DNA of 64,000 nucleotides from Candidatus Gygaella obscura (GCA_030765485.1 JAVCCR010000012.1:43679-107678), one strand, 5' to 3'; shown: positions 13,727 to 64,000, counted from the first letter of the stretch. Made by a program: numbers and translations. The notes: generated by a model from the sequence alone, not told the origin.

Positions 13727-13749
13727 TTTCTTCCGTTTTTGTTAAATTA

Positions 13750-16481
<2,732 letters not shown>

Positions 16482-25996: not shown

Positions 25997-26008
25997 TTTG
26001 ATAGAATA

Positions 26009-26091: not shown

Positions 26092-26100
26092 AAAAGCAGT

Positions 26101-26177
26101 GGGCTCATAGCTCAGTTGGTTAGAGCGTTTGCTTGACATGCAAAAGGTCAGAGGTTCAAGTCCTCTTGGGCCCACCA
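26101..26177 (+). tRNA. tRNA-Val (GAC) with encoded CCA
   Basis: Acceptor GGGCTCA/TGGGCCC, anticodon loop TTGACAT, T-loop GGTTCAAGTCC, then CCA. Confidence 0.85.
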
Positions 26178-35374: not shown

Positions 35375-35568
35375 TCATATGTTATACTTGAAATTGGAAG
35401 TTATGTTGTTATCCCTGCTGTGAGCGCCGGGTAATTTATTGTGTGTTGAACCAACAGCACAAGCACGGGAGCCTGACTTCATGTTGCTTGAGGGCAATGT
35501 GAGAAGGCACCCACCTAAAGGATAGGGTTCAAAGCAATTTATCTGACGCCACGCGCGGGGTTTTTTTA
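35375..35568 (+). ncRNA. ssrS: Candidate 6S RNA (ssrS) immediately upstream of the 5-formyl-THF cyclo-ligase gene, ending in a T-rich terminator
   Basis: ~400-nt non-coding gap between pheT and ygfA. The conserved ssrS-ygfA linkage is established in many bacteria. GC-rich, structured-looking stretch (CCCTGCTGTGAGCGCCGGG...GGCACCCACC...) ending in GCCACGCGCGGGGTTTTTTT. Secondary structure not verified. Confidence 0.3.
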
Positions 35569-48810: not shown

Positions 48811-49740
48811 TTATTGAGCTCTTTTATCAAGTACGTAGTTGCTTTTCCCCACCTTTTTAGCCGCACTTTTTAGTTCTGCGCCGATTTCACCGACTTGAGC
48901 AACATGGGTTATTTTGCGGGATTCATTGGTTACAACGCCGATAGATATTGACATCAACGGCGTTTGTTGTGGATTGCCTTGTCTGTCTTTAGCAGTGATA
49001 AAGCCTTTAGAGCGGTCTTCTTCGTTGTAGAAACCTAAAATTGCGCTATCAAATTCTTTTATGATTTCAGAACATAAAGCTTCTATTCTTTCCGGGATGG
49101 TGGTTACTACAAAGTCATCTCCTCCGATATGACCGATAAAATCATCATTTGCGCCGCATTTGGCAACGCTTGCAATGATTACTTGAGCAGTTTCTTTTAT
49201 GACGTCATCTCCGTGTTCAAATCCGTATTTATCATTGTAGCTTTTGAATTTATCCAAGTCGATATAGCAGACGCCAAAAGGCTTATCTGAATTTATGCGG
49301 TTTTGCAGTTCTGACATAATAGAGATATTGCCCGGAAGTTTGCTTAGGGGATTTGCGTCCAAATCTCTTTGCATGCGAGAGATGATCATTTTTATCCTGG
49401 CAATAAGCTCTTTGGGGACAAAAGGTTTTGTGATGTAGTCATCTGCCCCGGCCTCCAATCCCCTTACTTTATCGTCAATATCGCTTTTGCCAGTCAAGAG
49501 CACAACAGGCATATGCTGCATTAAAAGATCTTTTTTAATTACCTGGCAAAGATCCTTGCCGTTCATCTTCGGCATGGAATAATCCAATATTACCATATCC
49601 GGGTTCTGTTTTTGGATTTCTCGTAAGGCCTCTTCTCCGTCGCAGGTTTCAATCACCTGGTAGCCTTCTTTAGTAAGCACGATTTTTATAATATCACGAA
49701 TGTCCGGTTCATCGTCTGCTATAAGTATTTTTATGCTCAT
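48811..49740 (-). CDS. Response regulator with REC domain fused to a GGDEF-type diguanylate cyclase domain (signature variant GGDDF)
   Basis: IADDEPDIRDII...MVILDYSMP (REC, phospho-Asp). FGVCYIDLDKFKSYNDKYGFEHGDDV...HIGGDDFVV (GGDEF domain). Confidence 0.8.
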   Translation of the reverse strand: MSIKILIADDEPDIRDIIKIVLTKEGYQVIETCDGEEALREIQKQNPDMVILDYSMPKMNGKDLCQVIKKDLLMQHMPVVLLTGKSDIDDKVRGLEAGADDYITKPFVPKELIARIKMIISRMQRDLDANPLSKLPGNISIMSELQNRINSDKPFGVCYIDLDKFKSYNDKYGFEHGDDVIKETAQVIIASVAKCGANDDFIGHIGGDDFVVTTIPERIEALCSEIIKEFDSAILGFYNEEDRSKGFITAKDRQGNPQQTPLMSISIGVVTNESRKITHVAQVGEIGAELKSAAKKVGKSNYVLDKRAQ

Positions 49741-51209
49741 TTTGCTTTTGGGATTGTGAAACTAAAAGTAGCCCCTTGGTTTTCAATAGAGTTAAACCAT
49801 ATTCTTCCTTTGTGTGCTTCAACGATTTGTTTTACAAGGCAAAGGCCAAGTCCTGTACCTTTGATGTTTTTATCGATAGCATTATTGGCACGCTGGAATT
49901 CTTGGAAAATAAGAGGCAGATGATCTTTAGGTATTCCAATACCTGTATCAGATACGTTTGCCTCTATGAATTCACCAGTGTCTTTTATGCTTATTGTTAC
50001 TTTTCCTTTTTCCGGGGTGAATTTAATCGCATTAGATATTAGATTAATAAAAACTCTTTCAATCTGCATGGAGTCAGCTGTAATTTTTATAGGTAGCTGC
50101 GGGATTTGAATATTTAATTTTAAATTATGCTCCTTAATCTGGATAGCAAACATTTCAGCGATTTTATCGAGCATCGGTTTAAGTTCTTGGGTTTGGATGT
50201 TCATTTTGATGCGTCCTGCTTCGATTCTAGAAATATCCATCAGGTTTTCAATCAGCTGAGTTAGTTTGTCTGAGTGTTCGTTTATTTTACCAAGGCGAGT
50301 TTTTATTTCATCAGGTACGTCTCCCAATGTTCCGGCTAAGATTAACGAAGCGTATCCTTTAACTGAAGTAAGAGGGGTTCGCAATTCGTGTGAAACCGCC
50401 AGAATAAAGTCAGTTTTTCTTTTATTGATTTTTTCTATATTCTCTAACGCTTTGGTAAGTTCAAGCGTGCGCTCTTTTACCTTTAGTTCTAGGTCCTGTT
50501 GTGAGCGCCAGGTCTGTTCGAAGAGTCTGGCATTTTCTATTGCCTGGGAGATCTGCGTAGAAAGAACAGCTACAAGTTCTTCTTCTCCTTCGGTTATATT
50601 TAGCGCTTTTGATTCGTTGCCTAAAAAAAGTATTCCTTCCAGACCTTGTTTTGTTAATAGGCCGCTGATTACGAAAACTTCAGAATTTAGTTTTTCCAAA
50701 ACGAATTTTTTAATTTCGGGTATATCATTATTAAGACTTGAAATAGTATTTTTGTCTGAAATCATGTTTATCAACTTCATATTTGAAAATATTGTGCCTT
50801 GAATGCTAGTTATCTCTTCAGATTTAAATCCGCCGACAATCCTACATACTGGTTCGCGGGCAGTGTTTAATACAAATAAAAGGCATTTGTCAAAACCTAA
50901 ATCATGTAGTAGCGGCATGCTTAAGCGGTTAAACATTTCATCTTCTTCTAGGGTGGTAGAAAGGGCGTGCGAAATTTTCTGCAAAGCAAAAAGTCCGGAG
51001 ACTTTTTTATCAAGTTCTTCTTGGGTTTTGTTAAGCTCAAGGTCGGTTTTAATGATAAGCTTGGCTTGCTCATCAGCTTCATGGAGGTTGCGATTTAATT
51101 GGTAATTTTGCGATTTTAATTTTCGCAAAGAGCGGTTTTTAGATACTATAACCATAATCAGCAAAAGAATTGTAATATAAAATGCAAATTGTAGGCCTAT
51201 AATGTCCAT
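49737..51209 (-). CDS. Sensor histidine kinase (TM + GAF-like + HisKA + HATPase_c)
   Basis: H-box VSHELRTPLTSVKGY. N, G1 (DTGIGIP) and G2 (GTGLGL) boxes. N-terminal TM helix. Confidence 0.85.
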   Translation of the reverse strand: MDIIGLQFAFYITILLLIMVIVSKNRSLRKLKSQNYQLNRNLHEADEQAKLIIKTDLELNKTQEELDKKVSGLFALQKISHALSTTLEEDEMFNRLSMPLLHDLGFDKCLLFVLNTAREPVCRIVGGFKSEEITSIQGTIFSNMKLINMISDKNTISSLNNDIPEIKKFVLEKLNSEVFVISGLLTKQGLEGILFLGNESKALNITEGEEELVAVLSTQISQAIENARLFEQTWRSQQDLELKVKERTLELTKALENIEKINKRKTDFILAVSHELRTPLTSVKGYASLILAGTLGDVPDEIKTRLGKINEHSDKLTQLIENLMDISRIEAGRIKMNIQTQELKPMLDKIAEMFAIQIKEHNLKLNIQIPQLPIKITADSMQIERVFINLISNAIKFTPEKGKVTISIKDTGEFIEANVSDTGIGIPKDHLPLIFQEFQRANNAIDKNIKGTGLGLCLVKQIVEAHKGRIWFNSIENQGATFSFTIPKAK

Positions 51210-51217
51210 AATTTATT

Positions 51218-52414
51218 TTAAGTTGCAAAAGTTAAAGCTAAAAAAGATTCATTGTGTATATATGATTCTCCCATATAATCCAAGGCTTTTAAAGGAGAAA
51301 TTTCAGCGAAGCTAAAGATACCCATAAAGGGGGTGTTGCCAAACTGCTGTTTTATCGACTGGAATTCGTCCTCTATGGTTCTGCCTAAAAGTTTGAGTCT
51401 GCTTAAGGAATTAAAAATCAAGGCAAAAATTATTTTTTTTGTTCTTACCTGGTCAGCTGCTGACCAGATTGCCTGGGTAGAGGCGGCAATGCACTTATCT
51501 TTTGTACCCATCATCAGTTTTATTTGGCTGCCTTGGGGAACATCTGCTTGGCAAAAAAGCGAACCGTCGGCTTTTAGGCTTAAGACATTACGCAATAAAT
51601 ATTCTTTCTCGGCTTCCAGATATATACCTAATGGATACAAAATAGCAATATGCGAAAGTACATTGTCCTGCAATTCTTTTTTTGCCTGGTCAAAATATTC
51701 TTCGTATACTTTAAAGGCAGGCTGATTGTCGATTTCATTGATGATGTTACCAGAAGAAGAAGTTGCTTCATGCATTCTGCCTAAAGGCACCCAACCATGT
51801 TTAGAGTCTTTGCCAAAATGAAGTATGCGGCTGCAGATAAGTAGTCCTACCGCTGCATCAGCATAGATGCTGTTATTATAAAAAACTAAACTATTTTTAA
51901 AACAAAAATTATCCGTTGCGAATGAACCGAAGATAGGAAAACTTCTACCGAATATTGCTTTAAGTCCGGAGAGGATATCTGTGGGGTTTGCGGTTTTTGC
52001 GTCGGAAAACATAATAAACATGCTTCTTTGTGAAGCCTTTGCTTTTTCCAGGCATTCATTAGCAAGATTTTGTCCGGCGTTGAATAAATTAGATTGGCTG
52101 AGGGGTTTTTGTATTGCGCTTATAAATTGAATTTCATCGGAAGAAATTAACATTATTGCAATACCTCTTCGTTCAATGCCAAATGGTGAAATTATTCCTG
52201 CTCCGCTTGAACCGATTAGGTTGCGGGCATTGATTACAGAGTTTATTCCTCTTATTGCCTTGGGATTAGAAAATTCAATAGAGGCAAAGACAATTGCTAA
52301 GTCAACATTGTTGCTTTTTTGGTTAAGCCTGGTCATTGCCGAAATAGTAGCTTCTCTTGCGGCTTTAAAGACATCATCGTTATTGTTGAATCCCACACCG
52401 ATATTGGTAGACAT
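51218..52414 (-). CDS. Putative FIST-domain sensory protein (first gene of the FIST-HK-RR operon)
   Basis: 398 aa soluble protein with bipartite organisation resembling FIST_N/FIST_C. No catalytic motifs recognised. Assignment is tentative. Confidence 0.4.
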   Translation of the reverse strand: MSTNIGVGFNNNDDVFKAAREATISAMTRLNQKSNNVDLAIVFASIEFSNPKAIRGINSVINARNLIGSSGAGIISPFGIERRGIAIMLISSDEIQFISAIQKPLSQSNLFNAGQNLANECLEKAKASQRSMFIMFSDAKTANPTDILSGLKAIFGRSFPIFGSFATDNFCFKNSLVFYNNSIYADAAVGLLICSRILHFGKDSKHGWVPLGRMHEATSSSGNIINEIDNQPAFKVYEEYFDQAKKELQDNVLSHIAILYPLGIYLEAEKEYLLRNVLSLKADGSLFCQADVPQGSQIKLMMGTKDKCIAASTQAIWSAADQVRTKKIIFALIFNSLSRLKLLGRTIEDEFQSIKQQFGNTPFMGIFSFAEISPLKALDYMGESYIHNESFLALTFAT

Positions 52415-52506: not shown

Positions 52507-52581
52507 GGCCCCATCGTCTAGCTAGGTCTAGGACGGGTGGTTCTCAGCCATCAAACACCGGTTCAAATCCGGTTGGGGCTA
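52507..52581 (+). tRNA. tRNA-Glu (CUC)
   Basis: Acceptor GGCCCCA/TGGGGCT, Glu-type D-arm CGTCTAGCTAGGTCTAGGACG, anticodon stem GGTGG/CCATC with loop TTCTCAG, T-loop GGTTCAAATCC. Confidence 0.75.
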
Positions 52582-52599
52582 CCAGATTTTACTTACTAC

Positions 52600-53943
52600 A
52601 TGTCTATAAAAAAAGAAATACTATTTGTAAATCCGGCCGTTGTAAGTAATATTCTGAAAATTCTTTATCTATATTTTAAAAGATTTGTTCCCTCTGTTTT
52701 TTTTATACTTTCTGCTTTGTCTCCAGAAGATTATAAAATTAAAATCGTCAATCAGAAGATTTTTTGGTTTAAAAAAGACTTTCTTAAATATAAGGGTTGT
52801 CTTGTTGGTATAACCTGTACCACAATAAGCGTAATAAATGCATATAGGCTTGCTGATCGTTTTAAACAAGCCGGGGCGTATGTTGTTATGGGTGGTCCGC
52901 ATGTAAGTGTTTTGCCGGATGAAGCATTAAAACATTGTCATAGTGTTGTTATCGGTGAAGCTGAAGGGATATGGAAAGAGCTTCTACAAGACTACGAGAA
53001 AAAACAGCTAAAAAATAAATACGAAGCGTCTCTTTTAGATGATTTCTTTTCTCCGGTATATGAATATTTTCTAAAGCTTAAACCGAAGATACTGCGGATT
53101 ATAGGTATTTTTACGCACAGAGGCTGTAAGTATAACTGTGAATTCTGCGTTACCCCAAAAAAGAAATTAAGGTTTATTAAGATTGAGCAGATAGTTGGTT
53201 TAATTGAACGTATGAAGCAAGAAAGATTTTTTTCGTTTATTCAAAGGCCCAGCATTGCCCTTATGGGGGATAATATATATTCTAATCCTGATTTTGCCAA
53301 GAGGCTTTTTAAGTCGATAATCCCCTTGGGTATTAGTTGGGTCGCTAACGCTTCAATAGACATTGCCTTTGATGAAGAGGCTTTATCTCTTGCCAGGCAA
53401 AGCGGGTGCAGGTTGCTTTTTATTGGCTTTGAAACGATATTTCCTAGTCAATTAAGTAAGCTTTCTCTTCCGACCATAAAAAGCCATAGCGACTACATAA
53501 AGGCAGTAAAAAATATCAAGGCACATAAAATAAGAGTTACAGGAGCTTTTATAGTCGGTTTTGATAGCTATAAGCATAAGGATTATTTTAGGTTGATTTT
53601 TTTGATGGCTCGCATGCGGTTGTTTTTTGTTTCGCTTACCACATTAACTCCTTTTCCCGGATCTGCATTGTTTAAAAGATTAAAGAAAGAAAACAGGATT
53701 TTAACGTATGATTGGAAAAAATACAGTGTTTTTAGCAAGCCGGTATTTAAACCAAACAATATGTCGGTAATATCGGTTAAGATATGGTTTATATTTATTA
53801 GGATTGTCTCCCTACTTTTAAGTACGTTGACTTCGATATTGATACTTATGCTTATTTGGAATATTGTTATTTCTGTTTTAGACAGTAAGCTCAATCATCA
53901 GATTGCTACAGAAAGACTTGGTTCGGTATTTATTGTTAAATAA
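52600..53943 (+). CDS. Cobalamin (B12)-binding radical SAM protein (class B) with C-terminal hydrophobic membrane anchor. The ORF-track start at 52537 overlaps the tRNA; MSIKKEILFVNP at 52600 is preferred.
   Basis: B12-binding Rossmann region (FVNPAV...GGPHVSVLPDEAL), radical SAM CKYNCEFC. C-terminal WFIFIRIVSLLLSTLTSILILMLIWNIVISVL. Confidence 0.72.
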   Translation: MSIKKEILFVNPAVVSNILKILYLYFKRFVPSVFFILSALSPEDYKIKIVNQKIFWFKKDFLKYKGCLVGITCTTISVINAYRLADRFKQAGAYVVMGGPHVSVLPDEALKHCHSVVIGEAEGIWKELLQDYEKKQLKNKYEASLLDDFFSPVYEYFLKLKPKILRIIGIFTHRGCKYNCEFCVTPKKKLRFIKIEQIVGLIERMKQERFFSFIQRPSIALMGDNIYSNPDFAKRLFKSIIPLGISWVANASIDIAFDEEALSLARQSGCRLLFIGFETIFPSQLSKLSLPTIKSHSDYIKAVKNIKAHKIRVTGAFIVGFDSYKHKDYFRLIFLMARMRLFFVSLTTLTPFPGSALFKRLKKENRILTYDWKKYSVFSKPVFKPNNMSVISVKIWFIFIRIVSLLLSTLTSILILMLIWNIVISVLDSKLNHQIATERLGSVFIVK

Positions 53944-54034: not shown

Positions 54035-54919
54035 ATGAAGTTGAAACTTTTTTGTTTCCTCAGTATTGTTATAATCTTTTCAGGTTGTGACGTAATTGAT
54101 CAACAGATATCAAAAGTATACAATAAGCCCACTGGAACAATCATTGCAGAAATCGACAAAGAGTACGTTACCTTAGAAGAATTAAACGCAGAAATCGACA
54201 TTTATAATTCAAGTCCAGTTGTAGCTGAAAATGCTGATTTAAGAATTGAATCCAAAGAGAAAAAAATAAGCTATCTCGAAGAAGTTGTTAACCGAAAGCT
54301 TCTTTATCGGGAGGCAATCGACAGAGGTCTTGATCTAGATGCTGATTATAGGAATGCGGTAGATAATTTTAAGACCACACTTTTAGTTACCCGTCTTATT
54401 TCCGATGAAACAAAAGATATAGAAGTTGATTCAGCTGAAATAGAAGCAACCTATAACCAGGTAAAGGATATGCTTAAGGAGCCTGATCAGCGCTGGGTAA
54501 GAGAGATATCAGTTTCTACAAGAAGCAAGGCCAATGAGATACTTTCACAGCTTCTTACCGGATCAAGCTTTGCCAGTATGGCCATACAGTATTCTACTTT
54601 AGACAGCGCTTCCAAAGGCGGAGATTTAGGTTATGTAACGGTTGGATCAAAAGGAAGCGATTTTCCTGAATTCGACAATGTTGTTTTTGCCTCCACTTTA
54701 GAAGTCGGTGCGTTATCAAGCGTATTTAAGGGTCCTGGAGGGTATTATATTGTAAAGCTCGAGGATGAAAAAGATGGCAAGACCCCTGTTTTGACCGAGG
54801 TTTGGGATAGAATAAAATTAGCCTTGCAGCAGGAAAAGCAGCAGCAGGCATTGGATAAATTGCTCTCAGATGTTAAAGCGTCCACAGAAGTTAAGACCTA
54901 TAAACATTTGATAAAATAA
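54035..54919 (+). CDS. Parvulin-type peptidyl-prolyl isomerase lipoprotein (SurA/PrsA-like), translationally coupled to cpaB
   Basis: Lipobox IFSGC. PpiC domain (DLGYVTVGSKGSDFPEFDNVVFA...GPGGYYIVKLED). Stop overlaps cpaB start (TAATGG). Confidence 0.7.
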   Translation: MKLKLFCFLSIVIIFSGCDVIDQQISKVYNKPTGTIIAEIDKEYVTLEELNAEIDIYNSSPVVAENADLRIESKEKKISYLEEVVNRKLLYREAIDRGLDLDADYRNAVDNFKTTLLVTRLISDETKDIEVDSAEIEATYNQVKDMLKEPDQRWVREISVSTRSKANEILSQLLTGSSFASMAIQYSTLDSASKGGDLGYVTVGSKGSDFPEFDNVVFASTLEVGALSSVFKGPGGYYIVKLEDEKDGKTPVLTEVWDRIKLALQQEKQQQALDKLLSDVKASTEVKTYKHLIK

Positions 54920-55800
54920 TGGATATTAAGAAGAAATTGCCACTGATTATCGGGATAGTAAGTGGTTTTTTAGCGGTTATGCTTGCAGCAAATTATATTC
55001 AGAATAAAGAAAAAGAATACCGCAGTAAATATACTCCGCGTGAATTTGCAACAGCTGTTTATGCCGTAAGGGATATAAGACAGGGTCAGACAATCAGCGA
55101 AAAATCCCTGGCGTTAAAAAAAATAAATGCCGATTATCTGCAGCCAAGGGCAGCGCGTAGTATTGATCGGGTTGTAGGGAAAAAGGCAGCGGTGGATATT
55201 TATAAGGATGAGCAAATCAGTCTTTCAAAATTAGCTTCTACATTGAAAAAAGGCCCGGTCGGCCTTGCTGTTATTACTCCTAAAGGAAAAAGGGCAGTTA
55301 CCATACCTATCGATAGTGCTTCTTCGGTCGGCGGCATGATTAAGCCCGGAGACAGGGTTGATATTATGGCGAATATTCCTATTTCTACATCTACAGAAGC
55401 AGGCGTGGTGACTCAACAAGTTTTTAGTTCGGTTTTCCAGAATGTTTTGGTTTTAGCAGTTGGTAATCAGATTAGCGGTTATTCTTCCAATACCCAGCAA
55501 CAAAAGAGTTTTTCTGATATAACTTTGGCTTTGACTGCGCAGGAGGCAGCTTTCTTGAGTTTTGTTCAGGAACAGACGAAGATAAAATTATTGCTTCGTT
55601 CTCCCGAGGATAAACAGATTGAGGCAGTTGCCCCGGCAAGTTGGGCAACTTTACAGAGGTATCTTTATGGTTATCAGACTCCGCCTGCACCTCCTCCGAC
55701 AGTGGAGATCTACCGGGGTGTAAATAAAAAAGAATTGATGCGTATAGAAGTTCCATCTATGGAAGCTAATTCGGCGCAAGCAAAGGAGACAGGTAAGTGA
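54919..55800 (+). CDS. cpaB: Flp pilus assembly protein CpaB/RcpC
   Basis: N-terminal TM, SAF-like domain then RcpC domain. Position immediately before the secretin. Confidence 0.78.
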   Translation: MDIKKKLPLIIGIVSGFLAVMLAANYIQNKEKEYRSKYTPREFATAVYAVRDIRQGQTISEKSLALKKINADYLQPRAARSIDRVVGKKAAVDIYKDEQISLSKLASTLKKGPVGLAVITPKGKRAVTIPIDSASSVGGMIKPGDRVDIMANIPISTSTEAGVVTQQVFSSVFQNVLVLAVGNQISGYSSNTQQQKSFSDITLALTAQEAAFLSFVQEQTKIKLLLRSPEDKQIEAVAPASWATLQRYLYGYQTPPAPPPTVEIYRGVNKKELMRIEVPSMEANSAQAKETGK

Positions 55801-57377
55801 AAAAGGCAATAGCTTTTTGTGCAATGTGTTTTATCGTAGTTAATACAGCGTTTTCTTTTATGCCTGATTCAGTTGATAAGATTGAGCTTCTTTTAGGAGA
55901 ACTGCACACCATAAAGGTAGATAATCCTATCAGGGTTGCAATAGACAATCCAGATATAGCTGATATAGATAGAGTTGTCGGTAATGAGGTTTTTGTTTTA
56001 GGTAAATCTGCAGGACAAACCACTTTAAGGGTTTGGGATAGCTTAGGCGATGGAAGAGAAATCAATATCAAAGTTTTTACTGAAAACCTTCAGCCCTTGC
56101 GTAATAGAATAGAGAAGACCTTGGTAGATGTAGGGATAAATAATCTTTCACTGGATATAAATAAAAACGAACAGAAGATATTTATTTATGGTGTGATTAA
56201 TCCTTCTGATAAAGATATATTAGATAAAGCAATAGAACCTTTTATAGATTCAGTTGTTAATCTAACCACTGAATATCAGGAAAAAGGCCTGGTACAGATT
56301 GATGTGCAGATTCTAGAGCTTACCAAAGATGCACAAAAACAACTCGGTTTTAACTGGGTGGATGCCCTGCAGTTTATAGAACAGCCTTATCAGTCTGACG
56401 GTGGTTCAACCGGCACAACCTTAAACTATATAAACAAAGCCACAAGCACAACGCTTTTTAATGTTAATCAGTGGTCCAGGGATGCTTTGACCACATCGCT
56501 TAGCCTATTAGAGAGTGAAGGAAAACTTAAAGTGTTATCCCGTCCGAAACTGGTATGTTTAAGCGGTAAAGAGGCAAAGTTTTTAGTTGGTGGGGAGATT
56601 CCTGTGGTTACCCAGTCAACAAGCGATACAGGCACAGATACAAGTGTTGAATATAAAGAAATAGGCGTATCTTTAAGAATACAGCCTACAATAACAGAAG
56701 ATAATAGAATTGATACTCTTATCAAGGTGGAGGTAACGGATGTTGTTTTAAATACCGCTTTGGGTGCAGCGCAGTATAACTCTACATTGATAATTCCGGC
56801 ATTTGATAAAAGAAATGCAGAAACCCACCTTTATTTAGAAGATGAGCAGACGGTTTTTATTGCTGGTTTAATCAAGGATAAAACCGATGAAGATATAGAG
56901 CGTGTGCCTTGGTTGGGTAATATTCCTATTCTGGGTGCATTCTTTCGTTCTAAGACAACGGTAAATAATGATACAGAATTGGTTATTTCGCTTAGTCCAA
57001 AGATAGTTTCTAAGAAATCAAAGGCAAGACAGTCTTTATTGTCCCGAGTCCAAACGGTTGACTTAACAGCATATGATGATGTTCCTGTGGATTTAAAAGG
57101 CTACAGCTACTCGTTAAAAAGAAGGATTTATAGAGCAGCTACCTATCCTGATTTAGCCAATCAGGCCGGATATCAAGGGATGGTTAAGTTGAGTTTACAT
57201 ATATTGGCATCAGGAGAGATCAAAGATATTATTGTCGCTGAATCGAGCGGCTATAGGATATTAGATAATGCTGCTGTTGATGCGGTAAAGTCTTTAGATT
57301 GGGTCTCACCTTTTCCTACCAATGTGAGTATAGGTGATATCTGGTTAGATGTGCCAATCGTTTATAAAATAGACTAA
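55797..57377 (+). CDS. cpaC: Tad/Flp secretin CpaC/RcpA with a fused C-terminal TonB_C domain
   Basis: Secretin core (GGEIPVVTQSTSDTGTDTSVEYKEIGVSL, VPWLGNIPILGAFFRSKT). C-terminal ~90 aa YRAATYPDLANQAGYQGMVKLSLHILASGEIKDIIVAESSGYRILDNAAVDAVKSLDW fits the TonB C-terminal domain consensus. Confidence 0.85.
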   Translation: MKKAIAFCAMCFIVVNTAFSFMPDSVDKIELLLGELHTIKVDNPIRVAIDNPDIADIDRVVGNEVFVLGKSAGQTTLRVWDSLGDGREINIKVFTENLQPLRNRIEKTLVDVGINNLSLDINKNEQKIFIYGVINPSDKDILDKAIEPFIDSVVNLTTEYQEKGLVQIDVQILELTKDAQKQLGFNWVDALQFIEQPYQSDGGSTGTTLNYINKATSTTLFNVNQWSRDALTTSLSLLESEGKLKVLSRPKLVCLSGKEAKFLVGGEIPVVTQSTSDTGTDTSVEYKEIGVSLRIQPTITEDNRIDTLIKVEVTDVVLNTALGAAQYNSTLIIPAFDKRNAETHLYLEDEQTVFIAGLIKDKTDEDIERVPWLGNIPILGAFFRSKTTVNNDTELVISLSPKIVSKKSKARQSLLSRVQTVDLTAYDDVPVDLKGYSYSLKRRIYRAATYPDLANQAGYQGMVKLSLHILASGEIKDIIVAESSGYRILDNAAVDAVKSLDWVSPFPTNVSIGDIWLDVPIVYKID

Positions 57378-57397: not shown

Positions 57398-59557
57398 ATG
57401 GATCGATGTAAGGTTATCAGTTTATTCAGTACAAAAGGCGGCGTCGGAAAAACCTTTTTGGCTGTCAATATCGCAGTGAGCCTGGTAAAGGATTTTGATG
57501 CCAGGGTTGCCCTTTTGGATTTAGATTTGCATGTTCCCGGAGACATGGCTAGGATGCTGGATATTGTGCCAGAGCGCCCTTTGGCCGAATACATGAGCCT
57601 TTATAAAAAAAGGCCTGATGACCAAAAACCAGACATAAAAGATTTTGTAATCACTCATGGAAGCGGTGTAGATTTTGTATCCGGGTTATTAAAACCGCGT
57701 CAGGCTTCGCATTTTTTCCCCGAACTTATCAAGGTGGCAGTAGATGAGCTTTCCAAAAAATATGACTATATAATTATCGATGCCGGCAAGATTTTCTCCG
57801 ATACGCTTCTGGCCACTTTAAATACCTCAAATCTTATCATGATGGTGATTACACCGGATATTATCTCGGTCTATCAGACTAAGTGGGCCTTGGATATGCT
57901 GCAGTCATTACACCTTCCTCTAAAGATGATTAAATGTGTTTTAAACAGGTCTCAGAGTCTAGGTAGTGTTGCTTGGGAGGAGATAAAATCCATCCTGCCA
58001 GTAGATATTATCTCCTATATGCCTTCAGAAGGCAAAGCTGTAGGTTTATCGGTAAATAAGAGAATACCGGTTATTTTAGATTCGCCGCGTTCAAAGATAG
58101 CTCAGTCAATAAAAGAGCTGTGCGAGAAATTCGCCTATGGAGAAGATATTTTTATATCCAGGCAGGAGATAGAGGATATTAATTTAACTGCATACGAGCA
58201 GATTACTAAACACGAAGATTTCTGGCGTCAGCAGAATTTAGCAGAGCCAATTAAGGAAACAAAAGAATTAGACGAGATTACAGAGTTAAAAAAGCGCGTA
58301 CACCACAGGCTTATTTCAGAGCTGGATCTTAAACATCTTAATCTTACGCTTATGGATGCTAATCAGGCCAGACTTTTGCGTGAGAAAACCGAACGTTCCG
58401 TTGCCAATGCCTTGACTGATGAGACAGGTGGTTTGGTGAGTTCTGATAGTGTAAGAAAGCGCCTGATAAAGGAGATTACCGATGAAGCTTTAGGTCTTGG
58501 TCCTTTGGAGGATTTAATATCCGATCTTACGATTTCAGATATCTTAGTTAATGGTAAGGATCAGATATATGTTGAACGCCATGGTAAATTAGAGCTTACT
58601 AGTAAGCGTTTTATTTCAAATGATCAGGTTAGGCAGGTTATAGAGCGAATCATTGCTCCTTTAGGTCGCAGGATTGATGAATCTGTACCAATGGTTGATG
58701 CAAGGCTTGTTGATGGCTCGCGTGTAAATGCTATCATTCCTCCACTTTCTCTTTCAGGGCCTGTGCTATCAATTAGAAAGTTCGGCGCAGAAAAGTTTGG
58801 CATAGATGATTTAATAAAGATTAAAAGTTTAAATGAGAACATGCGTGATTTTATTAATGCTTGTGTTTTAACAAGACGTAATATTATTGTTTCTGGTGGC
58901 ACAGGTTCAGGTAAAACCACGGTTTTAAATATTCTTTCCGCGTTTATCCCTATAACTGAGCGTATTCTTACTATTGAAGACGCAGCAGAGCTTAAATTAA
59001 AGCAGGAACACTGGGTGCGTCTTGAGTCTAGGCCTTCCAATATTGAAGGCAAAGGTTCAGTTTCTATAAGAGAATTGTTTAGGAATAGTCTGCGTATGAG
59101 GCCGGATAGGATTATTATTGGTGAATGCCGCGGTGCAGAGACACTGGATATGCTTCAGGCTATGAATACCGGACACGATGGTTCTTTAACCACAATTCAC
59201 GCTAATTCTCCAAGAGATGTTTTAACCAGGCTTGATTCCATGATTCTTATGAGTGGCGTTGAGCTTCCCATAAGGGCTATCAGGGAAATGATTGCCTCTG
59301 CTATCAATGTTATAATTCATACGGCAAGATTGTCTGATGGTTCCAGAAAGGTTATCCGTATATCTGAAATCACAGGAATGGAAGACGAGATACATATAGA
59401 CATAAAGGACATCTTTATTTTTAGACAAACCGGAATTGGTGAAGATGGTCAAATTCAAGGATACTTTGAACCCACCGGCAATGTCCCATCGTTTATGGAC
59501 ATTATAGATGTTAGCGGTTTCCCCATAAATAGAGAAATCTTCAAAAAGAATAAATGA
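57398..59557 (+). CDS. cpaF: Fused CpaE/TadZ (ParA/MinD-like) and CpaF/TadA (VirB11-family secretion ATPase) protein, 719 aa
   Basis: N-terminal deviant Walker A FSTKGGVGKT (CpaE-like). C-terminal Walker A GGTGSGKTT, Asp box, Walker B (RPDRIIIGECRG), His box (TIHANS) of TadA ATPases. Confidence 0.9.
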   Translation: MDRCKVISLFSTKGGVGKTFLAVNIAVSLVKDFDARVALLDLDLHVPGDMARMLDIVPERPLAEYMSLYKKRPDDQKPDIKDFVITHGSGVDFVSGLLKPRQASHFFPELIKVAVDELSKKYDYIIIDAGKIFSDTLLATLNTSNLIMMVITPDIISVYQTKWALDMLQSLHLPLKMIKCVLNRSQSLGSVAWEEIKSILPVDIISYMPSEGKAVGLSVNKRIPVILDSPRSKIAQSIKELCEKFAYGEDIFISRQEIEDINLTAYEQITKHEDFWRQQNLAEPIKETKELDEITELKKRVHHRLISELDLKHLNLTLMDANQARLLREKTERSVANALTDETGGLVSSDSVRKRLIKEITDEALGLGPLEDLISDLTISDILVNGKDQIYVERHGKLELTSKRFISNDQVRQVIERIIAPLGRRIDESVPMVDARLVDGSRVNAIIPPLSLSGPVLSIRKFGAEKFGIDDLIKIKSLNENMRDFINACVLTRRNIIVSGGTGSGKTTVLNILSAFIPITERILTIEDAAELKLKQEHWVRLESRPSNIEGKGSVSIRELFRNSLRMRPDRIIIGECRGAETLDMLQAMNTGHDGSLTTIHANSPRDVLTRLDSMILMSGVELPIRAIREMIASAINVIIHTARLSDGSRKVIRISEITGMEDEIHIDIKDIFIFRQTGIGEDGQIQGYFEPTGNVPSFMDIIDVSGFPINREIFKKNK

Positions 59558-59898
59558 AGTTAGACAATAGCAGCAAAAACACTTGTCTGGCCAGTAATGT
59601 ATTAATGGCCGATAGTTTTTTCTTACGGTTAAAGGGTCTACTGACAAAAGAATCTTTAGATACCGATACTTGCCTAATTATAAGGCCTGGAAATAGCATT
59701 CACACTTTTTTTATGAAGTTTGATATCGATGCGATATTTTTAGATAAGCAGCTTAATGTTGTTGGTCTATTAGAAGGCTTTAAGCCTTTTAGAATTAGTC
59801 CTATCTTTTTCAAATCCTGCATAATAGTAGAACTTCCATCTGGTAAGATAAAAGCTACAAATACCTCATTTGGAGATAGGCTGGAGTTAATCAGCTGA
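59554..59898 (+). CDS. DUF192-like small protein co-transcribed with the pilus ATPase
   Basis: IHTFFMKFDIDAIFLD resembles the DUF192 core. 114 aa. 4-nt overlap with cpaEF. Confidence 0.45.
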   Translation: MKLDNSSKNTCLASNVLMADSFFLRLKGLLTKESLDTDTCLIIRPGNSIHTFFMKFDIDAIFLDKQLNVVGLLEGFKPFRISPIFFKSCIIVELPSGKIKATNTSFGDRLELIS

Positions 59899-60193: not shown

Positions 60194-61702
60194 ATGAGTA
60201 AAACTTATAAATTAAAGCCTTATTTAGTTAAATTTATAAAGAAACATAAGGTTGCTAATCCATTGCTTAGTTGTAGAAGCCTATCTACAATAGTATTTAA
60301 GAAATTTGAAATAAAAGTTTCTAAATCAAGTATTAATACTATTATTAATGAGCTTGATTTAAGTCAGCCTCCTGGCAGAAGGCCAAGAAATTTAGATATG
60401 GAGCTTAATACTGCCCAAGAGAATATGGGGGCATTTTTTCTTAAGGCAGCTGATCTTTATTTAGGCTTGGGAAATTATTTAGTTGATTTAATTACTGCAC
60501 ACCAAAAAGCAAAGAATAAAAAAGAACTGAGTATAAAAAACAATACAATTCTTTATTACAGGTTGGTTGCGAATAGGTTTTTGGAAAAAAATACCCCGAT
60601 TCCTCAGGTTGTATATCAGGCCTCAGAAGGAATTTACTCATCTAAGGTATTAACTTCCTATCTTTTTAGATTGCAGGATGTTACATCAATATACAGTGAT
60701 TTTATAGATTCTATAGCAGCATTTTTAAATACTGTAACCGGAATAAGAATTGAATACAATAAAGGCAGTATTTTCTTAGAATCAGGGTTAAAATCAGTTG
60801 TTTTTGATAATAGTTTTACAGGTTCAGATGTTGTAACAATCTATAAAATAAGAAGTTACATGAAGGATATATTATTTAAAAAAACTGAGCCTTTAGTTAT
60901 TTTGAGCAGCAATAATATGAATATTTATCAGGATGCAATTTGTAATTTTCTTGCTGCAAGTAAAATAAAAGCAGTTGATTTTATTGGTTTGCAGAATAAG
61001 ATAATTGAAAAAATAGTGTTTGAAGATATTCGTTTACAGGCCATTATTGGTATGTTTGCCCAGGATTTTGCAGCAACGCAGGATATAAAAATTAAGGGAT
61101 CTTTTAAATCAGTTAACTGCGGAGACAGCAAAGAGAAATTTATTGCGGAAGCAGAAGCCATATTTACACAACACATTGTAAACAAGAGAGTTACAATAAG
61201 AGCTATTGTTGTACGTAGTTCAGTCCTAGGCATGGAAGAGTATGTAATTTTAACTAATATAGAAAAAACAAATATGTCGATGGAAGAGGTTTTTTTAAGA
61301 TTCATCTCAAAATGGCCAAATCCGCAAGATGCCTATAATCAGTTAAGCGCAGAGAAATTGCAAGGGTATAATAAACGAGAAATCAATGATAACATTTTGG
61401 TATATAATAAGTTAGGTGATGATGATATCTTTGATATCTGCCTTGAAATTTTGAACTATTATTTCCAGAAGTTGTTTTTTCCTTCAAATTGGAAAACAAA
61501 AGGCATTGCTTTTATGAAGGAGAATTTCTATAATCTGCCCGGCACTCTGAAAACAACCAGCAACAAGCAGCAGATCAGCCTAAAGATTAAAAGAAACCAG
61601 CCTTTTCTTACAGAAATTGGCTTAGCCTGTGAGAAAATCAATCAAAATAGCCTTAAAAATCTGCATAAAAAAATACTTCAAATCCAGCTGTCTTTTAGAT
61701 AG
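60194..61702 (+). CDS. Hypothetical 502-aa protein (N-terminal HTH-like segment) between the pilus machinery and the pilin array, preceded by a 295-nt AT-rich spacer
   Basis: Long uninterrupted ORF with low-GC codon usage like its neighbours. No catalytic motifs recognised. N-terminal KSSINTIINELDLSQPPGRRPR is HTH-like. Confidence 0.5.
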   Translation: MSKTYKLKPYLVKFIKKHKVANPLLSCRSLSTIVFKKFEIKVSKSSINTIINELDLSQPPGRRPRNLDMELNTAQENMGAFFLKAADLYLGLGNYLVDLITAHQKAKNKKELSIKNNTILYYRLVANRFLEKNTPIPQVVYQASEGIYSSKVLTSYLFRLQDVTSIYSDFIDSIAAFLNTVTGIRIEYNKGSIFLESGLKSVVFDNSFTGSDVVTIYKIRSYMKDILFKKTEPLVILSSNNMNIYQDAICNFLAASKIKAVDFIGLQNKIIEKIVFEDIRLQAIIGMFAQDFAATQDIKIKGSFKSVNCGDSKEKFIAEAEAIFTQHIVNKRVTIRAIVVRSSVLGMEEYVILTNIEKTNMSMEEVFLRFISKWPNPQDAYNQLSAEKLQGYNKREINDNILVYNKLGDDDIFDICLEILNYYFQKLFFPSNWKTKGIAFMKENFYNLPGTLKTTSNKQQISLKIKRNQPFLTEIGLACEKINQNSLKNLHKKILQIQLSFR

Positions 61703-61901
61703 TTATTTTTTGCTGTTAAAAATGACATAACTACTTGAAAAGGCTAAGAAAACGGTTTCTGCAGACAGGGCATTCTTCCTTGACAGGGCCTATTGTATAT
61801 GTTATATTTTACATGCAGACAGTAATGGTAACGAAAAGGCAATTCTCAAATATTTTTGAGATGCGCAAAGCCACGGGTTAAGAGAGTTTATCTTTAAATT
61901 G

Positions 61902-61947
61902 CCGGGCTACCGAAAACCAGTGGAGAGTTTCGCAGCCCGGTTTTTTT
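61902..61947 (+). terminator. Nested hairpin plus T7 run (terminator or attenuator) just upstream of the first Flp pilin gene
   Basis: CCGGGCT...AGCCCGG outer stem with inner CGAAA...TTTCG stem, then TTTTTTT. Confidence 0.35.
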
Positions 61948-61962
61948 ATTAAGGACTTAATT

Positions 61963-62178
61963 ATGAATTTTAAAAAGTTTTTAAAAAGAAAAAAGGCACA
62001 AGCGGTTTTAGAGTATCTGATTATATCAGCAACAGTCGCTGCTATTGTTTTAATTGCTTTTGCGAATTACTCAGAAGATTCATTTGTTCCAAAAGCAAAA
62101 AATTCTTTAACAGACTTTTATCATCAAGCAAGGATTCGCATAAACGAAGGTTTCAGAAATCCTGACGTTGCTGATTAA
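61963..62178 (+). CDS. flp: Flp-family pilin paralog 1 (71 aa; variant A-QAVL-EY processing motif)
   Basis: Basic N-terminus KKFLKRKKAQAVLEYLIISATVAAIVLIAF, a class III (Flp-type) signal followed by a hydrophobic helix. Confidence 0.5.
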   Translation: MNFKKFLKRKKAQAVLEYLIISATVAAIVLIAFANYSEDSFVPKAKNSLTDFYHQARIRINEGFRNPDVAD

Positions 62179-62190
62179 GGGAGACAACTG

Positions 62191-62358
62191 ATGAAGAAAA
62201 GAGCACAAAGTTTTATTGAATACGCATTGCTTTTAGCTGTTATATCCATGGCTTTTATGGCAATGTACAAATATGTTGAGCGTTCAGCTAAGGCTAATCT
62301 TAAGCTGATGGAAGAAAAAGTAAACGCAGAGCCAGAGTTACGTTTTCAGGTTTGGTAA
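62191..62358 (+). CDS. flp: Flp-family pilin paralog 2 (55 aa; not in ORF track)
   Basis: Own translation MKKRAQSFIEYALLLAVISMAFMAMYKYVERSAKANLKLMEEKVNAEPELRFQVW. SD GGGAGA upstream. Confidence 0.5.
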   Translation: MKKRAQSFIEYALLLAVISMAFMAMYKYVERSAKANLKLMEEKVNAEPELRFQVW

Positions 62359-62394
62359 TCTGCGTTTTTTGTTTTTATAAGACTAGGAGGATGG

Positions 62395-62610
62395 ATGATG
62401 AGAAAAAGAAATAAAAAGGGTCAAAGCATTTTAGAGTATGTGATTGTTTTAACAGCTGTTGTAGGCGCAATTGCAGCGGGTGTGGCAGCTTTTATTTATA
62501 ATCCAGTTGCCGAAGGTGATCCCAAGTCTGGTTTAGCCAATGTTTATACCAATGCAGCAACAAGGATGTCTTCTTCTACGGCAAGGCTTGGTTCGGAATT
62601 ATTCGAATAA
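62395..62610 (+). CDS. flp: Flp-family pilin paralog 3 (71 aa)
   Basis: KKGQSILEYVIVLTAVVGAIAAGVAAF carries the G-xxxx-EY Flp motif. AGGAGG SD. Confidence 0.65.
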   Translation: MMRKRNKKGQSILEYVIVLTAVVGAIAAGVAAFIYNPVAEGDPKSGLANVYTNAATRMSSSTARLGSELFE

Positions 62611-62622
62611 AGGAGGCTAGGA

Positions 62623-62793
62623 ATGATAAGGAATAAAAGAGGTCAAAGCACATTAGAGTATTTACTTGTTTTAGCTGCTGTTGTGGGATTGTTGGTTTGG
62701 GCAGCGCAGGGACCAATTAGAGTTGCAGTTACTAATATGTTTTCAGATGCAAATGATACCATTAGTACAGCAGCTGATTATCTTGAGGAATAA
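62623..62793 (+). CDS. flp: Flp-family pilin paralog 4 (56 aa; not in ORF track)
   Basis: Own translation MIRNKRGQSTLEYLLVLAAVVGLLVWAAQGPIRVAVTNMFSDANDTISTAADYLEE. AGGAGG SD. Confidence 0.6.
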   Translation: MIRNKRGQSTLEYLLVLAAVVGLLVWAAQGPIRVAVTNMFSDANDTISTAADYLEE

Positions 62794-62818
62794 TGATCGT
62801 GTTAACAGGAGGTGCTAA

Positions 62819-63202
62819 ATGTTAAAGAATTTATGGAATAAAAAGGGTCAGAGTACAGCAGAATACGCGATTTTAATCGGCCTTGTTATTGCAGCTGCTA
62901 TTGGTATGCAGACATATGTTAAACGCGGCATGCAGGCTAAGTTAAGAGCCCAGGTAATTAATACCGTAGGTACAATTATTGATGTAGAGAATCCGGCTAC
63001 TTTAAGCGATGCTGATGTTCAGTTTGAGCCACAAGGAAAAATTGCAAAAAGCACTTCGGGGACTTTAGCAGGTTCAGGCAATACCGAAACAATGGATTAC
63101 GGCGGTTCTGTAATAAGAGCAGGTACACAGAGAACAATTCAGGCAACAGGTGATTACCAAGTATATGACTACGAGTCTGAAGATGCTCCTGGTGAAGAAT
63201 AA
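62819..63202 (+). CDS. flp: Flp-family pilin paralog 5, long form (127 aa) with Gly/Thr-rich middle and acidic C-terminal tail
   Basis: KKGQSTAEYAILIGLVIAAAIG. Tail ...YDYESEDAPGEE. Confidence 0.65.
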   Translation: MLKNLWNKKGQSTAEYAILIGLVIAAAIGMQTYVKRGMQAKLRAQVINTVGTIIDVENPATLSDADVQFEPQGKIAKSTSGTLAGSGNTETMDYGGSVIRAGTQRTIQATGDYQVYDYESEDAPGEE

Positions 63203-63219
63203 ATTAACGGAGGTGTTAC

Positions 63220-63588
63220 ATGTTTAATAAAAGAGGCCAGAGCACATTAGAATACGCAGTTATTATAGCAGCTGTTATAGCAGGCTTGGTTGCTATGCAA
63301 AAATTTATGACTAGAAGCGTTCAGGGTAAACTGCGGGATTCAGTCAATGATATCGGCGAGCAGTATTCCGCAGATCATACAGTGAGTGAAACTACAATTG
63401 ATTATTCGGAAACAAAGGAAAACCGGGAAACATTCGGTTATAATTTGGATACATCCAGCGGAGAGGTTGGAATAGATAATATTGGTAAGCAGGGTTATTA
63501 TTTGGTTACCCCAAGTACTACTGAAACCTATACATCAGAAACCATTGATGATTTTGGAGACGAAAAGTTATTTGAAGAAGAGGAATAA
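63220..63588 (+). CDS. flp: Flp-family pilin paralog 6, long form (122 aa) with acidic tail
   Basis: KRGQSTLEYAVIIAAVIAGLVA. Tail ...IDDFGDEKLFEEEE. Confidence 0.65.
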   Translation: MFNKRGQSTLEYAVIIAAVIAGLVAMQKFMTRSVQGKLRDSVNDIGEQYSADHTVSETTIDYSETKENRETFGYNLDTSSGEVGIDNIGKQGYYLVTPSTTETYTSETIDDFGDEKLFEEEE

Positions 63589-63603
63589 TTAAGGAGGCTG
63601 GAT

Positions 63604-63957
63604 ATGTGGAAAATTTTAAGAGGTAAAAAGGGTCAGAATACAGCAGAGTATGCGATTCTATTTGCGATTATCGTAGGTGCTGTTATGGCAATGCAGACAT
63701 ATGTAAAAAGAGGCTTGCAGAAAGGTGTCCAGCATAGGGTTGACGAAGGCCTTAATGAAGAGCTAAGCGTAAAATCATATGAGCCTTATTACTTAAGAAG
63801 TAATTATACAAGTACAACTGACTATACTGAAGCATCCAGTGATTATGAAAGAATCGGTAAATCCGGAGACGTGGCTAGAACATATGGTCTAAAGAGCACA
63901 ACACGAGAAGGAACACAGATCATAAAAGATACAGATGTAATACCGGTAACGGAATAA
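63604..63957 (+). CDS. flp: Flp-family pilin paralog 7, long form (117 aa)
   Basis: KKGQNTAEYAILFAIIVGAVMA. Shares YVKRG(L/M)Q block with paralog 5. Confidence 0.65.
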   Translation: MWKILRGKKGQNTAEYAILFAIIVGAVMAMQTYVKRGLQKGVQHRVDEGLNEELSVKSYEPYYLRSNYTSTTDYTEASSDYERIGKSGDVARTYGLKSTTREGTQIIKDTDVIPVTE

Positions 63958-63974
63958 AATAATGGAGGTGTTGC

Positions 63975-64000
63975 ATGTTTAATAAAAGAGCCCAAAGCAC
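63975..64000 (+). CDS. flp: Flp-family pilin paralog 8 (5' fragment; runs off window end)
   Basis: MFNKRAQS... Same N-terminus as paralog 6. GGAGGTG SD upstream. Confidence 0.4.

Follow-up and report, generated by a model that had tools for sequence, protein, structure and literature searches.

The pilin-like array

The window analysed here, a stretch of 64,000 nucleotides (nt) from Candidatus Gygaella obscura (GCA_030765485.1, JAVCCR010000012.1:43679-107678), ends in a tandem array of small genes, p1 to p8, which occupies 61963-64000 on the plus strand and consists of seven complete pilin-like open reading frames (ORFs) and an eighth that is cut by the window end. The original prediction, made by a model from the sequence of the window, had pointed out this region as an array of at least eight Flp-type pilin genes, and our analysis agrees with it on this point. 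On the evidence given below, we consider that the array is probably the pilin block of a riboswitch-gated Tad-type (type IVc) pilus locus, in which long forms of the pilins act as specialised subunits.

The N-terminus is built in the same manner in all eight ORFs: a basic leader of 5-12 residues is followed by [G/A]-Q-x-x-x-E-Y and then by a hydrophobic stretch of about 20 residues, the residue at -1 being G in p3-p7 and A in p1, p2 and p8, with Q at +1, E at +5 and Y at +6. The G/XXXXEY prepilin motif by which Flp/Fap pilins are recognised is present in every one of them, and all N-terminal strings quoted in the original prediction, with their basic residues, G/A-xxxx-EY motif and hydrophobic helix, were found in place. 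When the six frames of the 64 kb were searched with a regular expression (a basic residue, one of G, A and S, four residues, [ED][YFLW], and 16 consecutive hydrophobic residues without charge), its matches were the array ORFs only; matches confined in this way represent a clustering far beyond chance.

The genes are separated by gaps of 12-36 nt, and GGAG or GGAGG lies 6-10 nt 5' of the start in seven of the eight; the assignment of a GGAGG-type Shine-Dalgarno site to each gene therefore holds except for p1, which has AAGGA only. The mature proteins of p1-p4 have 49-62 amino acids (aa) and those of p5-p8 have 89-117 aa, for a size expectation of about 45-65 aa in Flp/Fap pilins. The C-terminal tails of p5-p7 are Gly/Ser/Thr-rich and acidic, as had been described (32-33% G/S/T and 18-26% D/E, with a net charge of -4 to -16). 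Two of the small genes had been thought to be missed by ORF calling, but public gene callers call all genes of the array, which are labelled 'hypothetical' in public records; the NCBI record of p6, for example, is a hypothetical protein of Candidatus Gygaella obscura (Omnitrophota, PVC group).

The Tad locus around the array

Beyond the window end the array was followed on a public contig (L002), of which 11 kb downstream were scanned, and it does continue there, as had been expected: the contig carries three more small pilin-like genes, of 95 (the length of p8 there), 111 and 111 aa in this order, three large genes, and a further Flp-like gene, p14 (Table 1). The complete array of window and contig comprises 11 small and 3 large pilin-like genes. 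The division into four genes of Flp size and three long forms is thus right for the sizes in the window (55-71 and 117-127 aa) but not for the number of long genes, which are six (95-127 aa) in the complete array.

On the upstream side, the window contains, in this order, genes for a peptidyl-prolyl isomerase (PPIase), RcpC/CpaB, a secretin, a TadZ-TadA fusion (TadZA), a DUF192 protein and a protein of 502 aa. The linkage to tadA, tadB, tadC, rcpA and rcpC that is expected of Flp/Fap pilin genes was found when the window and L002 were taken together, and the set of Tad components includes all except TadV, TadD and RcpB, with TadZ and TadA fused. Because the prepilin motif is combined with a Tad gene context on both sides, the array can be regarded as the pilin block of a Tad-type locus, and the assignment of p1-p8 as Tad/Flp-type prepilins is supported by motif and context.

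Several of these neighbours have features of their own. The secretin ends in a TonB_C domain (residues 448-525), and each of the six further Omnitrophota loci L025-L030 encodes a secretin fused in the same way. In the TadZ-TadA fusion the ParA/MinD-like domain begins at residue 5, leaving the protein without an N-terminal receiver-like domain, and its score for the NCBIfam TadA family is 345 bits, below the cutoff of 373. The 502-aa protein has no match in Pfam, NCBIfam or PDB. A homolog was detected at the same position in L022 (E = 5e-16), with 44% identity in the 63 N-terminal residues; an unannotated gene for 476-591 aa occupies the same slot, between DUF192 and the pilin unit, in L007, L008 and L025-L030, homology being confirmed for L022 only. 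The N-terminus of the 502-aa protein looks helix-turn-helix-like, and the protein may be a locus-specific regulator.

Table 1. Positions of the array genes, leader elements and Tad components, and of riboswitch variants in related loci. Positions with a prefix refer to the contig or locus named; all others refer to the window.
Feature	Position	Strand	Description
RcpC/CpaB homolog	54919-55800	+	Pfam RcpC 5e-24, SAF
RcpA/CpaC-type secretin	55797-57377	+	Pfam T2SS-T3SS_pil_N, Secretin 1.8e-45, TonB_C 8.6e-16
TadZ-TadA fusion ATPase	57398-59557	+	719 aa; ParA/CbiA 5-186, T2SSE 365-644
DUF192 protein	59554-59898	+	kept in every related locus
502-aa protein, no known family	60194-61702	+	directly upstream of riboswitch/pilin unit
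Sigma-70-like promoter	61780-61808	+	TTGACA, 17 nt, TATATT, TG before -10; 11/12, consensus match only
c-di-GMP-I (GEMM-I) aptamer	61828-61914	+	RF01051, 47.7 bits (gathering 35), E = 2.4e-8, full model 1-87
Intrinsic terminator (predicted expression platform)	61901-61947	+	overlaps aptamer
p1	61963-62178	+	71 aa, short pilin-like; leader MNFKKFLKRKKA then QAVLEY
p2	62191-62358	+	55 aa, about 50 aa mature; Flp-sized, most Flp-like member
Hairpin and U-tract, candidate partial terminator/attenuator	62324-62376	+	overlaps p2 end; -20.9 kcal/mol, z = -2.7
p3	62395-62610	+	71 aa, short pilin-like
p4	62623-62793	+	56 aa, short pilin-like
p5	62819-63202	+	127 aa, long form; C-terminal region acidic, G/S/T-rich
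p6	63220-63588	+	122 aa, long form; reference for long-form family
p7	63604-63957	+	117 aa, long form
p8	63977-64000	+	long form, ATG at 63977, cut by window end; 95 aa in L002:1055-1342
380-aa protein	L002, after 111-aa genes		same N-terminal motif as array
142-aa protein	L002, after 380-aa gene		weak TadE (PF07811) match, 19.7 bits (cutoff 22.9)
695-aa protein	L002, after 142-aa gene		weak TadG-type match ('Tad', PF13400)
p14	L002, after 695-aa gene, next to tadB		67 aa, Flp-like
TadB and TadC	L002, after p14		two T2SSF genes
RF03167 site	L022:13244-13346		before giant/large ORF
RF03167 site	L025:20008-20135		before giant/large ORF
RF03167 site	L026:17082-17165		before giant/large ORF
RF03167 site	L029:18183-18280		before giant/large ORF
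RF03167 site	L030:18025-18132		before giant/large ORF

After TadC, L002 carries at 7657-10835 two paralogous secreted-looking proteins (760 and 297 aa), followed by a gene of at least 1,028 aa; the two paralogs share the N-terminus (a signal peptide and ...EK.NIWFDK..(A/F)WD.GG...) and Gly-rich segments, and have no Pfam match.

Conservation and selection

An Omnitrophota metagenome-assembled genome (L007), whose TadZA is 92% identical to that of the window, was used as the reference for the ratio of nonsynonymous to synonymous substitution rates (dN/dS). All 13 of the 13 pilin-like genes compared have one-to-one orthologs in L007, in the same order and with 60-90% identity, and their dN/dS values are 0.07-0.25 (0.09 for p1, whose ortholog is 90% identical, and 0.08 for p2; 0.027 for TadZA). 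Values in this range indicate that the array ORFs are real genes under purifying selection, and, together with the Shine-Dalgarno sites and the syntenic orthologs, they rule out that the ORFs are spurious.

The composition of the array is maintained over larger distances. In L008 and L010, whose TadZA proteins are 61% and 49% identical to that of the window, the pattern is kept, with a p1-like, a p2-like and a p3/p4-like gene, several long forms, a pilin-like gene of 340-380 aa, a TadG-like gene of about 700 aa and a p14-like Flp. Eight further Omnitrophota loci (L022, L024-L030) were reached via homologs of the long forms, and in most of them the genes follow the order of the window: PPIase, RcpC, a secretin with TonB_C, a TadZA of about 720 aa, DUF192, a protein without known family (about 500-590 aa), the pilin array and, last, TadB/C. 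In the 11 related loci together (L007, L008, L010, L022, L024-L030), the number of pilin-like ORFs per locus is 8-13, with 3-7 long forms. Passenger genes occur in otherwise kept loci: a gene of the bAvd/23S_rRNA_IVP family lies just before TadB at L024:9324-9701, and an IS200-type Y1 transposase lies between DUF192 and the conserved unknown gene at L026:6290-6772 and L029:6225-6707.

The original prediction had offered antigenic variation as one explanation of the diversity, in which the paralogs would be interchangeable alleles of the major pilin, expressed singly or shuffled by recombination. Two observations would suit such antigenic or phase variation: divergence from L007 is quicker in the C-terminal parts (58-85% identity) than in the N-termini (77-97%, which is the range for the first 35 codons, with 58-94% for all that follows them), and the number of long forms varies by lineage from 3 to 7. 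The paralogs within the genome, however, share only 4-31% identity, and each has its ordered one-to-one ortholog in another, genus-level relative; all array genes stand behind one promoter and riboswitch (see below) with their own Shine-Dalgarno sites; and the exact sequence of p7 was found on 16 public contigs from several samples (an Antarctic lake and other metagenomes). The DNA repeats in the array are N-terminal coding segments only (60-90% identical), and neither long identical tracts, silent cassettes, flanking inverted repeats nor repeats of an invertible element were found in it, which rules out variation of the cassette or inversion type. The combination of low identity among paralogs with ordered one-to-one orthologs indicates that the set is ancient and differentiated, and this points to distinct roles of its members and speaks against cassette-type antigenic variation, so that we regard variable alleles as a very improbable explanation. 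The other option raised originally, dedicated minor pilins with functional specialisation, is the one that fits best.

The riboswitch leader

The region directly upstream of p1, which lies outside the coordinates covered by the original prediction, contains a promoter-like sequence, a cyclic di-GMP (c-di-GMP) aptamer of the GEMM-I type and an intrinsic terminator (Table 1). Both promoter hexamers are kept in L007, and a similar site, TTGACA-17-TATACT, is present in L010. The terminator, which was found by folding because its loop exceeds 8 nt and is beyond the terminator scan (the same applies to the hairpin after p2, described later), begins with the 5' arm GCCGGGCU at 61901-61908, and these 8 nt are at the same time the 3' arm of the P2 helix of the aptamer; its 3' arm AGCCCGG (61934-61940) is followed by a run of seven U at 61941-61947. 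The terminator hairpin (-18.7 kcal/mol) and the aptamer fold (-23.2 kcal/mol) are mutually exclusive, and ligand binding should therefore prevent termination, making this leader a predicted ON switch. The unpaired nucleotide 5' of aptamer P1 is G (model position 11, which we take to be G20 of the Vc2 aptamer), the state of the c-di-GMP type and not of the cGAMP type.

The leader of L007 is 93% identical and shows a compensatory change of C-G to U-A in P1. An aptamer above the curated Rfam score was found at the same position, 5' of the first pilin gene, in seven further loci, belonging to RF01051 in L007, L022, L025, L027, L028 and L030 and to RF03167 (c-di-GMP-I-GGC) in L010, and the overlap of aptamer and terminator recurs in L010 and L022; L024, whose contig ends, stands outside this comparison. 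No c-di-GMP riboswitch was found in the TadZA loci of Bacteriovoracaceae, WOR-3 or 'Bacilli'. A third c-di-GMP-I riboswitch of L022 (1605-1703, minus strand, 64.9 bits) lies 5' of a gene for 491 aa, which is oriented away from the Tad/pilin unit.

The window also contains a signalling cluster, at 48811-52414 on the minus strand and a few kb upstream of the Tad locus. It comprises genes for a protein with a FIST domain, for a histidine kinase and for a response regulator that contains a GGDEF-like domain, and is a possible local input of c-di-GMP. The motif of the last protein, which combines a receiver (REC) domain with GGDEF, reads GGDDF, so activity cannot be assumed, and we have not adopted this protein as the source of c-di-GMP.

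Family membership and the long forms

By curated sequence models p1-p8 are not members of Flp_Fap (PF04964), whereas by motif and context they are Tad-type prepilins. The PF04964 search, proposed as a check in the original prediction, gave a best score of 15.3 bits (p6; 13.8 for p2 and 15.2 for p14) against a cutoff of 32.2, and with Class_IIIsignal (PF04021) five of the seven complete in-window proteins scored 16.6-18.3 bits (16.6 for p1 and 17.7 for p4) against a cutoff of 23.7; p3 has no Pfam match at E <= 1. Flp_Fap is the best, though sub-threshold, Pfam match of p2, as it is over most of the model for the p2 orthologs in L008, L010, L022, L025 and L030, and orthologs of the p14 class likewise match most of the model below the threshold, p2 and p14 representing the most Flp-like classes. 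As a control, a homologous TadZA locus of Bacteriovoracaceae was taken, whose only Flp shares the N-terminus KGQ..LEYA and passes Flp_Fap with 37.5 bits. For PF04021, an archaeal host with an assembly system of the Epd/Aap or archaellum type would be expected, and what we found is an Omnitrophota bacterium with Tad-type machinery and an outer-membrane secretin. No in-window protein matches TadE (PF07811) at E <= 1, and only one of 150 members of the long-form family does so at E <= 0.01, which rules out a TadE/F identity of the long forms. Current Pfam models thus miss these Omnitrophota pilins.

A profile search started from p6 over 1.84 billion cluster representatives (clusters of 50% identity) gave 4,688 matches at E <= 1e-3 and at least 1,855 clusters at E <= 1e-10, and the best 150 matches are nearly all full-length, of about 95-175 aa. 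Since long forms also occur in 3-7 copies in every related Omnitrophota locus examined, the view that extended Flp pilins are uncommon could not be upheld: they are unusual only against characterised Flp pilins and, judged by these profile matches, form a large uncharacterised family. Its named top matches are all Omnitrophota 'hypothetical protein' entries, and automatic names given by the Joint Genome Institute (JGI) are 'Flp pilus assembly pilin Flp' or 'UPF0333 family'. In homologs of 100-140 aa, GQSTLEYA is invariant, the block Y.KRG.QGKLR..D.IGEQY is kept, the middle is T/S-rich, and an acidic C-terminal motif E..L[F/W] is present. AlphaFold2 models of p6, which gave the same outcome at two alignment depths, show a helix at residues 9-47 (block means of the predicted local distance difference test score, pLDDT, 75-98, and above 90 at residues 11-40), followed by four beta-strands with a pLDDT of 55-65 only.

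Some features of the long forms would suit proteins that are not filament subunits, namely surface or secreted proteins that use a class III signal peptide and are either held in the membrane by the alpha-1 helix, in the manner of the archaeal bindosome, or leave the cell through a Tad machine that works as a secretion system. Among the 150 family members, matches at E <= 0.01 are more frequent to Class_IIIsignal (45) than to Flp_Fap (24) or DUF4244 (15), three homologs have a precomputed PF04021 match, some carry the JGI name 'UPF0333 family', and no structural similarity of a long form to any solved pilin was found. We nevertheless consider a role outside the filament unlikely, because the first 45 residues or so are highly conserved, including YxKRGxQGKLR, which continues alpha-1 as expected for packing in a helical core, because the long-form genes are interleaved with Flp-like, TadE-like and TadG-like genes in the Tad locus, and because the mature size of about 90-120 aa fits the range of type IV pilins.

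Roles of the pilins and proposed mechanism

The sole hint on relative expression within the array is the hairpin with a U-tract that overlaps the end of p2 (Table 1). It is kept in L007 (z = -3.7); the hairpin of L010 lacks the U-tract, so that conservation as a terminator in L010 was ruled out. In Ca. Gygaella obscura it may attenuate transcription after p1 and p2 and so raise their expression over that of the rest. From this and from the Flp_Fap matches described above, p2 and p14 are inferred to be the best candidates for the fibre subunit.

It could also be supposed that the long forms are alternative major pilins, each building a whole fibre, and that several kinds of Tad pilus are made by one machine. 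In the Omnitrophota loci, no other pilin class is as numerous or as well conserved as the long forms, and KilP, the major Tad pilin of Myxococcus, has at least 96 aa (known from an A96C variant) and exposes its C-terminal part on the fibre surface (PMC12075869). The present data fit long forms as minor pilins equally, and the hairpin after p2 suggests lower expression of everything downstream; we find the idea of several major pilins somewhat doubtful.

With the long forms taken as specialised subunits, the locus could work as follows, the steps beyond the leader parts following what is established for Tad pili and for riboswitches of the GEMM-I type. At high c-di-GMP, the aptamer would be stabilised and the terminator blocked, and transcription would enter the array. 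A prepilin peptidase encoded elsewhere would cleave the leaders, and the TadBC platform and the TadZA ATPase would polymerise the pilins through the secretin, with p2 or p14 as the likeliest main fibre subunit. The six long forms would be specialised minor or alternative subunits, each with an alpha-1 helix and an acidic, T/S-rich, probably beta-structured C-terminal region, and their task, shared with the TadE/F/G-like proteins of 380, 142 and 695 aa, would be to decorate or cap the fibre and to determine its binding target. The likely use would be a c-di-GMP-triggered attachment of the cell to a host, a prey cell or a particle.

Several observations weigh against this interpretation. The curated Pfam cutoffs of Flp_Fap and Class_IIIsignal lie above the scores of all array proteins in the window, and no curated NCBIfam cutoff is reached either. 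A scan for multi-pass membrane ORFs gave no candidate for a prepilin peptidase in the window, L002, L007, L008, L010, L012, L020 and L021, and no gene is annotated as such a peptidase in L022 and L024-L030; tadV, for which the original prediction recommended a search, was found neither in the window nor within 11 kb downstream. The beta region of the long forms was modelled with low confidence (see the values above), and no structural relative of it was found. The leader of L008 is below the Rfam threshold, and those of L026 and L029 are GEMM-like with altered core blocks, while both the ligand c-di-GMP and the ON polarity are predictions from sequence and folding. Finally, the division into major and minor pilins depends on size, weak scores of hidden Markov models and one hairpin that is kept only in the close relative L007.

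Riboswitch variants before giant genes

In all five of the five related loci in which the Tad cluster is followed by a giant or large ORF, we found the variant riboswitch RF03167 directly 5' of this ORF (59.5-71.3 bits against a gathering score of 59; Table 1). The ORFs behind these elements encode 15,475, 9,639, 8,323 and 9,754 aa and, in one case, at least 1,052 aa. An element of this type before a giant ORF was not detected in the 11 kb downstream of the window's locus, on L002. The arrangement in the relatives points to a co-regulation of the pilus and the giant protein.

As a tentative extension, it is possible that the long forms represent a new structural class, intermediate between all-helical Flp and the globular type IV and archaeal pilins, which diversifies the fibre or its tip for the recognition of host or prey, and that riboswitches of the GEMM-I type separately gate the pilin array and a gene for a giant surface protein (8,000-15,000 aa) beside the TadZA machine, the whole serving as a c-di-GMP-gated contact module.

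Other features of the window

The region 11282-21140, probably that of the chromosomal replication origin, includes dnaA (17698-19062), gyrB (13750-16197) and gyrA (11282-13726), all on the minus strand. At about 19-20 kb the genes change their orientation and the GC skew is reversed as well, and the cumulative skew has its minimum there. A 6S RNA was assigned at 35409-35565 (RF00013, 57.7 bits). Eight tRNA genes are spread across the window, with a cluster of three at 25925-26174. The tRNA gene at 52507-52581 overlaps the listed GTG start of an ORF for a B12-binding radical S-adenosylmethionine protein (52537-53943), whose true start is probably farther downstream.

Comparison with known systems

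Canonical Tad/Flp and Cpa pili, as in the flp-tad-rcp locus of Aggregatibacter and the cpa locus of Caulobacter, resemble the present system in the G/XXXXEY-type leader, the small helical pilin, RcpC/CpaB, the RcpA/CpaC secretin with an N-terminal pilus-formation domain, TadZ, TadA, TadB and TadC, and the TadE- and TadG-like proteins. Canonical loci have 1-3 flp genes, contain the tadV/cpaA peptidase within the locus, and encode tadZ and tadA separately. The present locus differs from them in that its pilins score below the Flp_Fap cutoff, position +1 is nearly always Q, position -1 is often A instead of G, a TonB_C domain is fused to the secretin, and there is a large family of extended pilins. 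As to regulation, a c-di-GMP-II riboswitch with a terminator lies directly 5' of the type IV pilin gene pilA1 in Clostridioides difficile and acts as an ON switch, by which high c-di-GMP leads to pilus adhesion. The present case differs from it in riboswitch class (GEMM-I here), in pilus class (Tad/type IVc here, type IVa-like there), in phylum, and in that about 11 pilin genes would be gated. In the literature searched, we found nothing that links Omnitrophota, Flp/Tad pilins or giant genes to c-di-GMP riboswitches, nor any report of a c-di-GMP-I-GGC riboswitch before giant ORFs.

Pili go unmentioned in the paper in which Ca. Gygaella obscura was described (PMC8542988). For the phylum, the available portions of earlier publications place TadB and TadC of Omnitrophota in one group with their Bdellovibrionales counterparts (Seymour et al., 2023, PMC10066038) and report that the Tad complex is expressed in Velamenicoccus archaeovorus LiM, also of the Omnitrophota, in co-culture with its archaeal prey, and that pilus and secretion genes flank giant ORFs. 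Within these portions, the Tad studies analysed TadB/C, RcpA, TadZ and KEGG 'Flp', and not pilin arrays, long forms or the riboswitch; Omnitrophota Tad systems and their adjacency to giant genes are accordingly known, while the array, the long-form family and the riboswitch are not covered there.

TadZA fusions of Bacteriovoracaceae, a family of Bdellovibrio and like organisms, are 37-42% identical to the window's ATPase, and such a fusion is also present on contigs binned as WOR-3 and as 'Bacilli'/'Firmicutes' (loci L012, L013, L015, L021 and L016-L020). In the Bacteriovoracaceae loci examined, the pilin motif has 1-2 matches only, which are a small Flp in L012 and, in both L013 and L021, a large TadG-like protein; the long-form family and a c-di-GMP riboswitch are missing from these loci. 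A further related system is tad locus 1 of Bdellovibrio bacteriovorus, which has an atypical TadZA fusion and flp1-4, no TadV being present in the tad loci of this species (bioRxiv 10.64898/2026.07.08.737194). The two systems share a TadZ-TadA fusion lacking a receiver-like N-domain, the presence of several genes of the flp type and the lack of TadV in the tad loci, and the missing TadV of the present locus thus has a precedent.

With respect to the size of the repertoire, the Tad-like Kil pilus of Myxococcus xanthus is a comparable system. It has the major pilin KilP and 14 minor pilins, with four exchangeable tips and two adapters; sets of minor pilins change the target range, the adapters are Flp-like pilins, and the C-terminus of KilP is exposed and charged (PMC12075869). 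Compared by description, the two systems are alike in the Tad-type machine and the very large repertoire of about 14-15 pilins, and differ in gene arrangement and in the proteins concerned: Kil has its pilin genes at several separate loci and builds its tips from the large proteins KilL/M/N, whereas the expansion here is one of small pilins of 95-127 aa, which stand in tandem. Members of the Omnitrophota are ultra-small, uncultured bacteria for which a predatory or parasitic way of life is suspected, and the locus bears on how and when attachment to a partner occurs. It offers handles that can be tested by experiments: a defined pilin repertoire conserved across the phylum, a predicted signal, c-di-GMP, with riboswitch antitermination as the predicted mechanism, and a related switch before giant genes in relatives. 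The array also adds a case to a view that Myxococcus Kil and Bdellovibrio have begun to suggest, namely that large pilin sets adapt the function of Tad pili.

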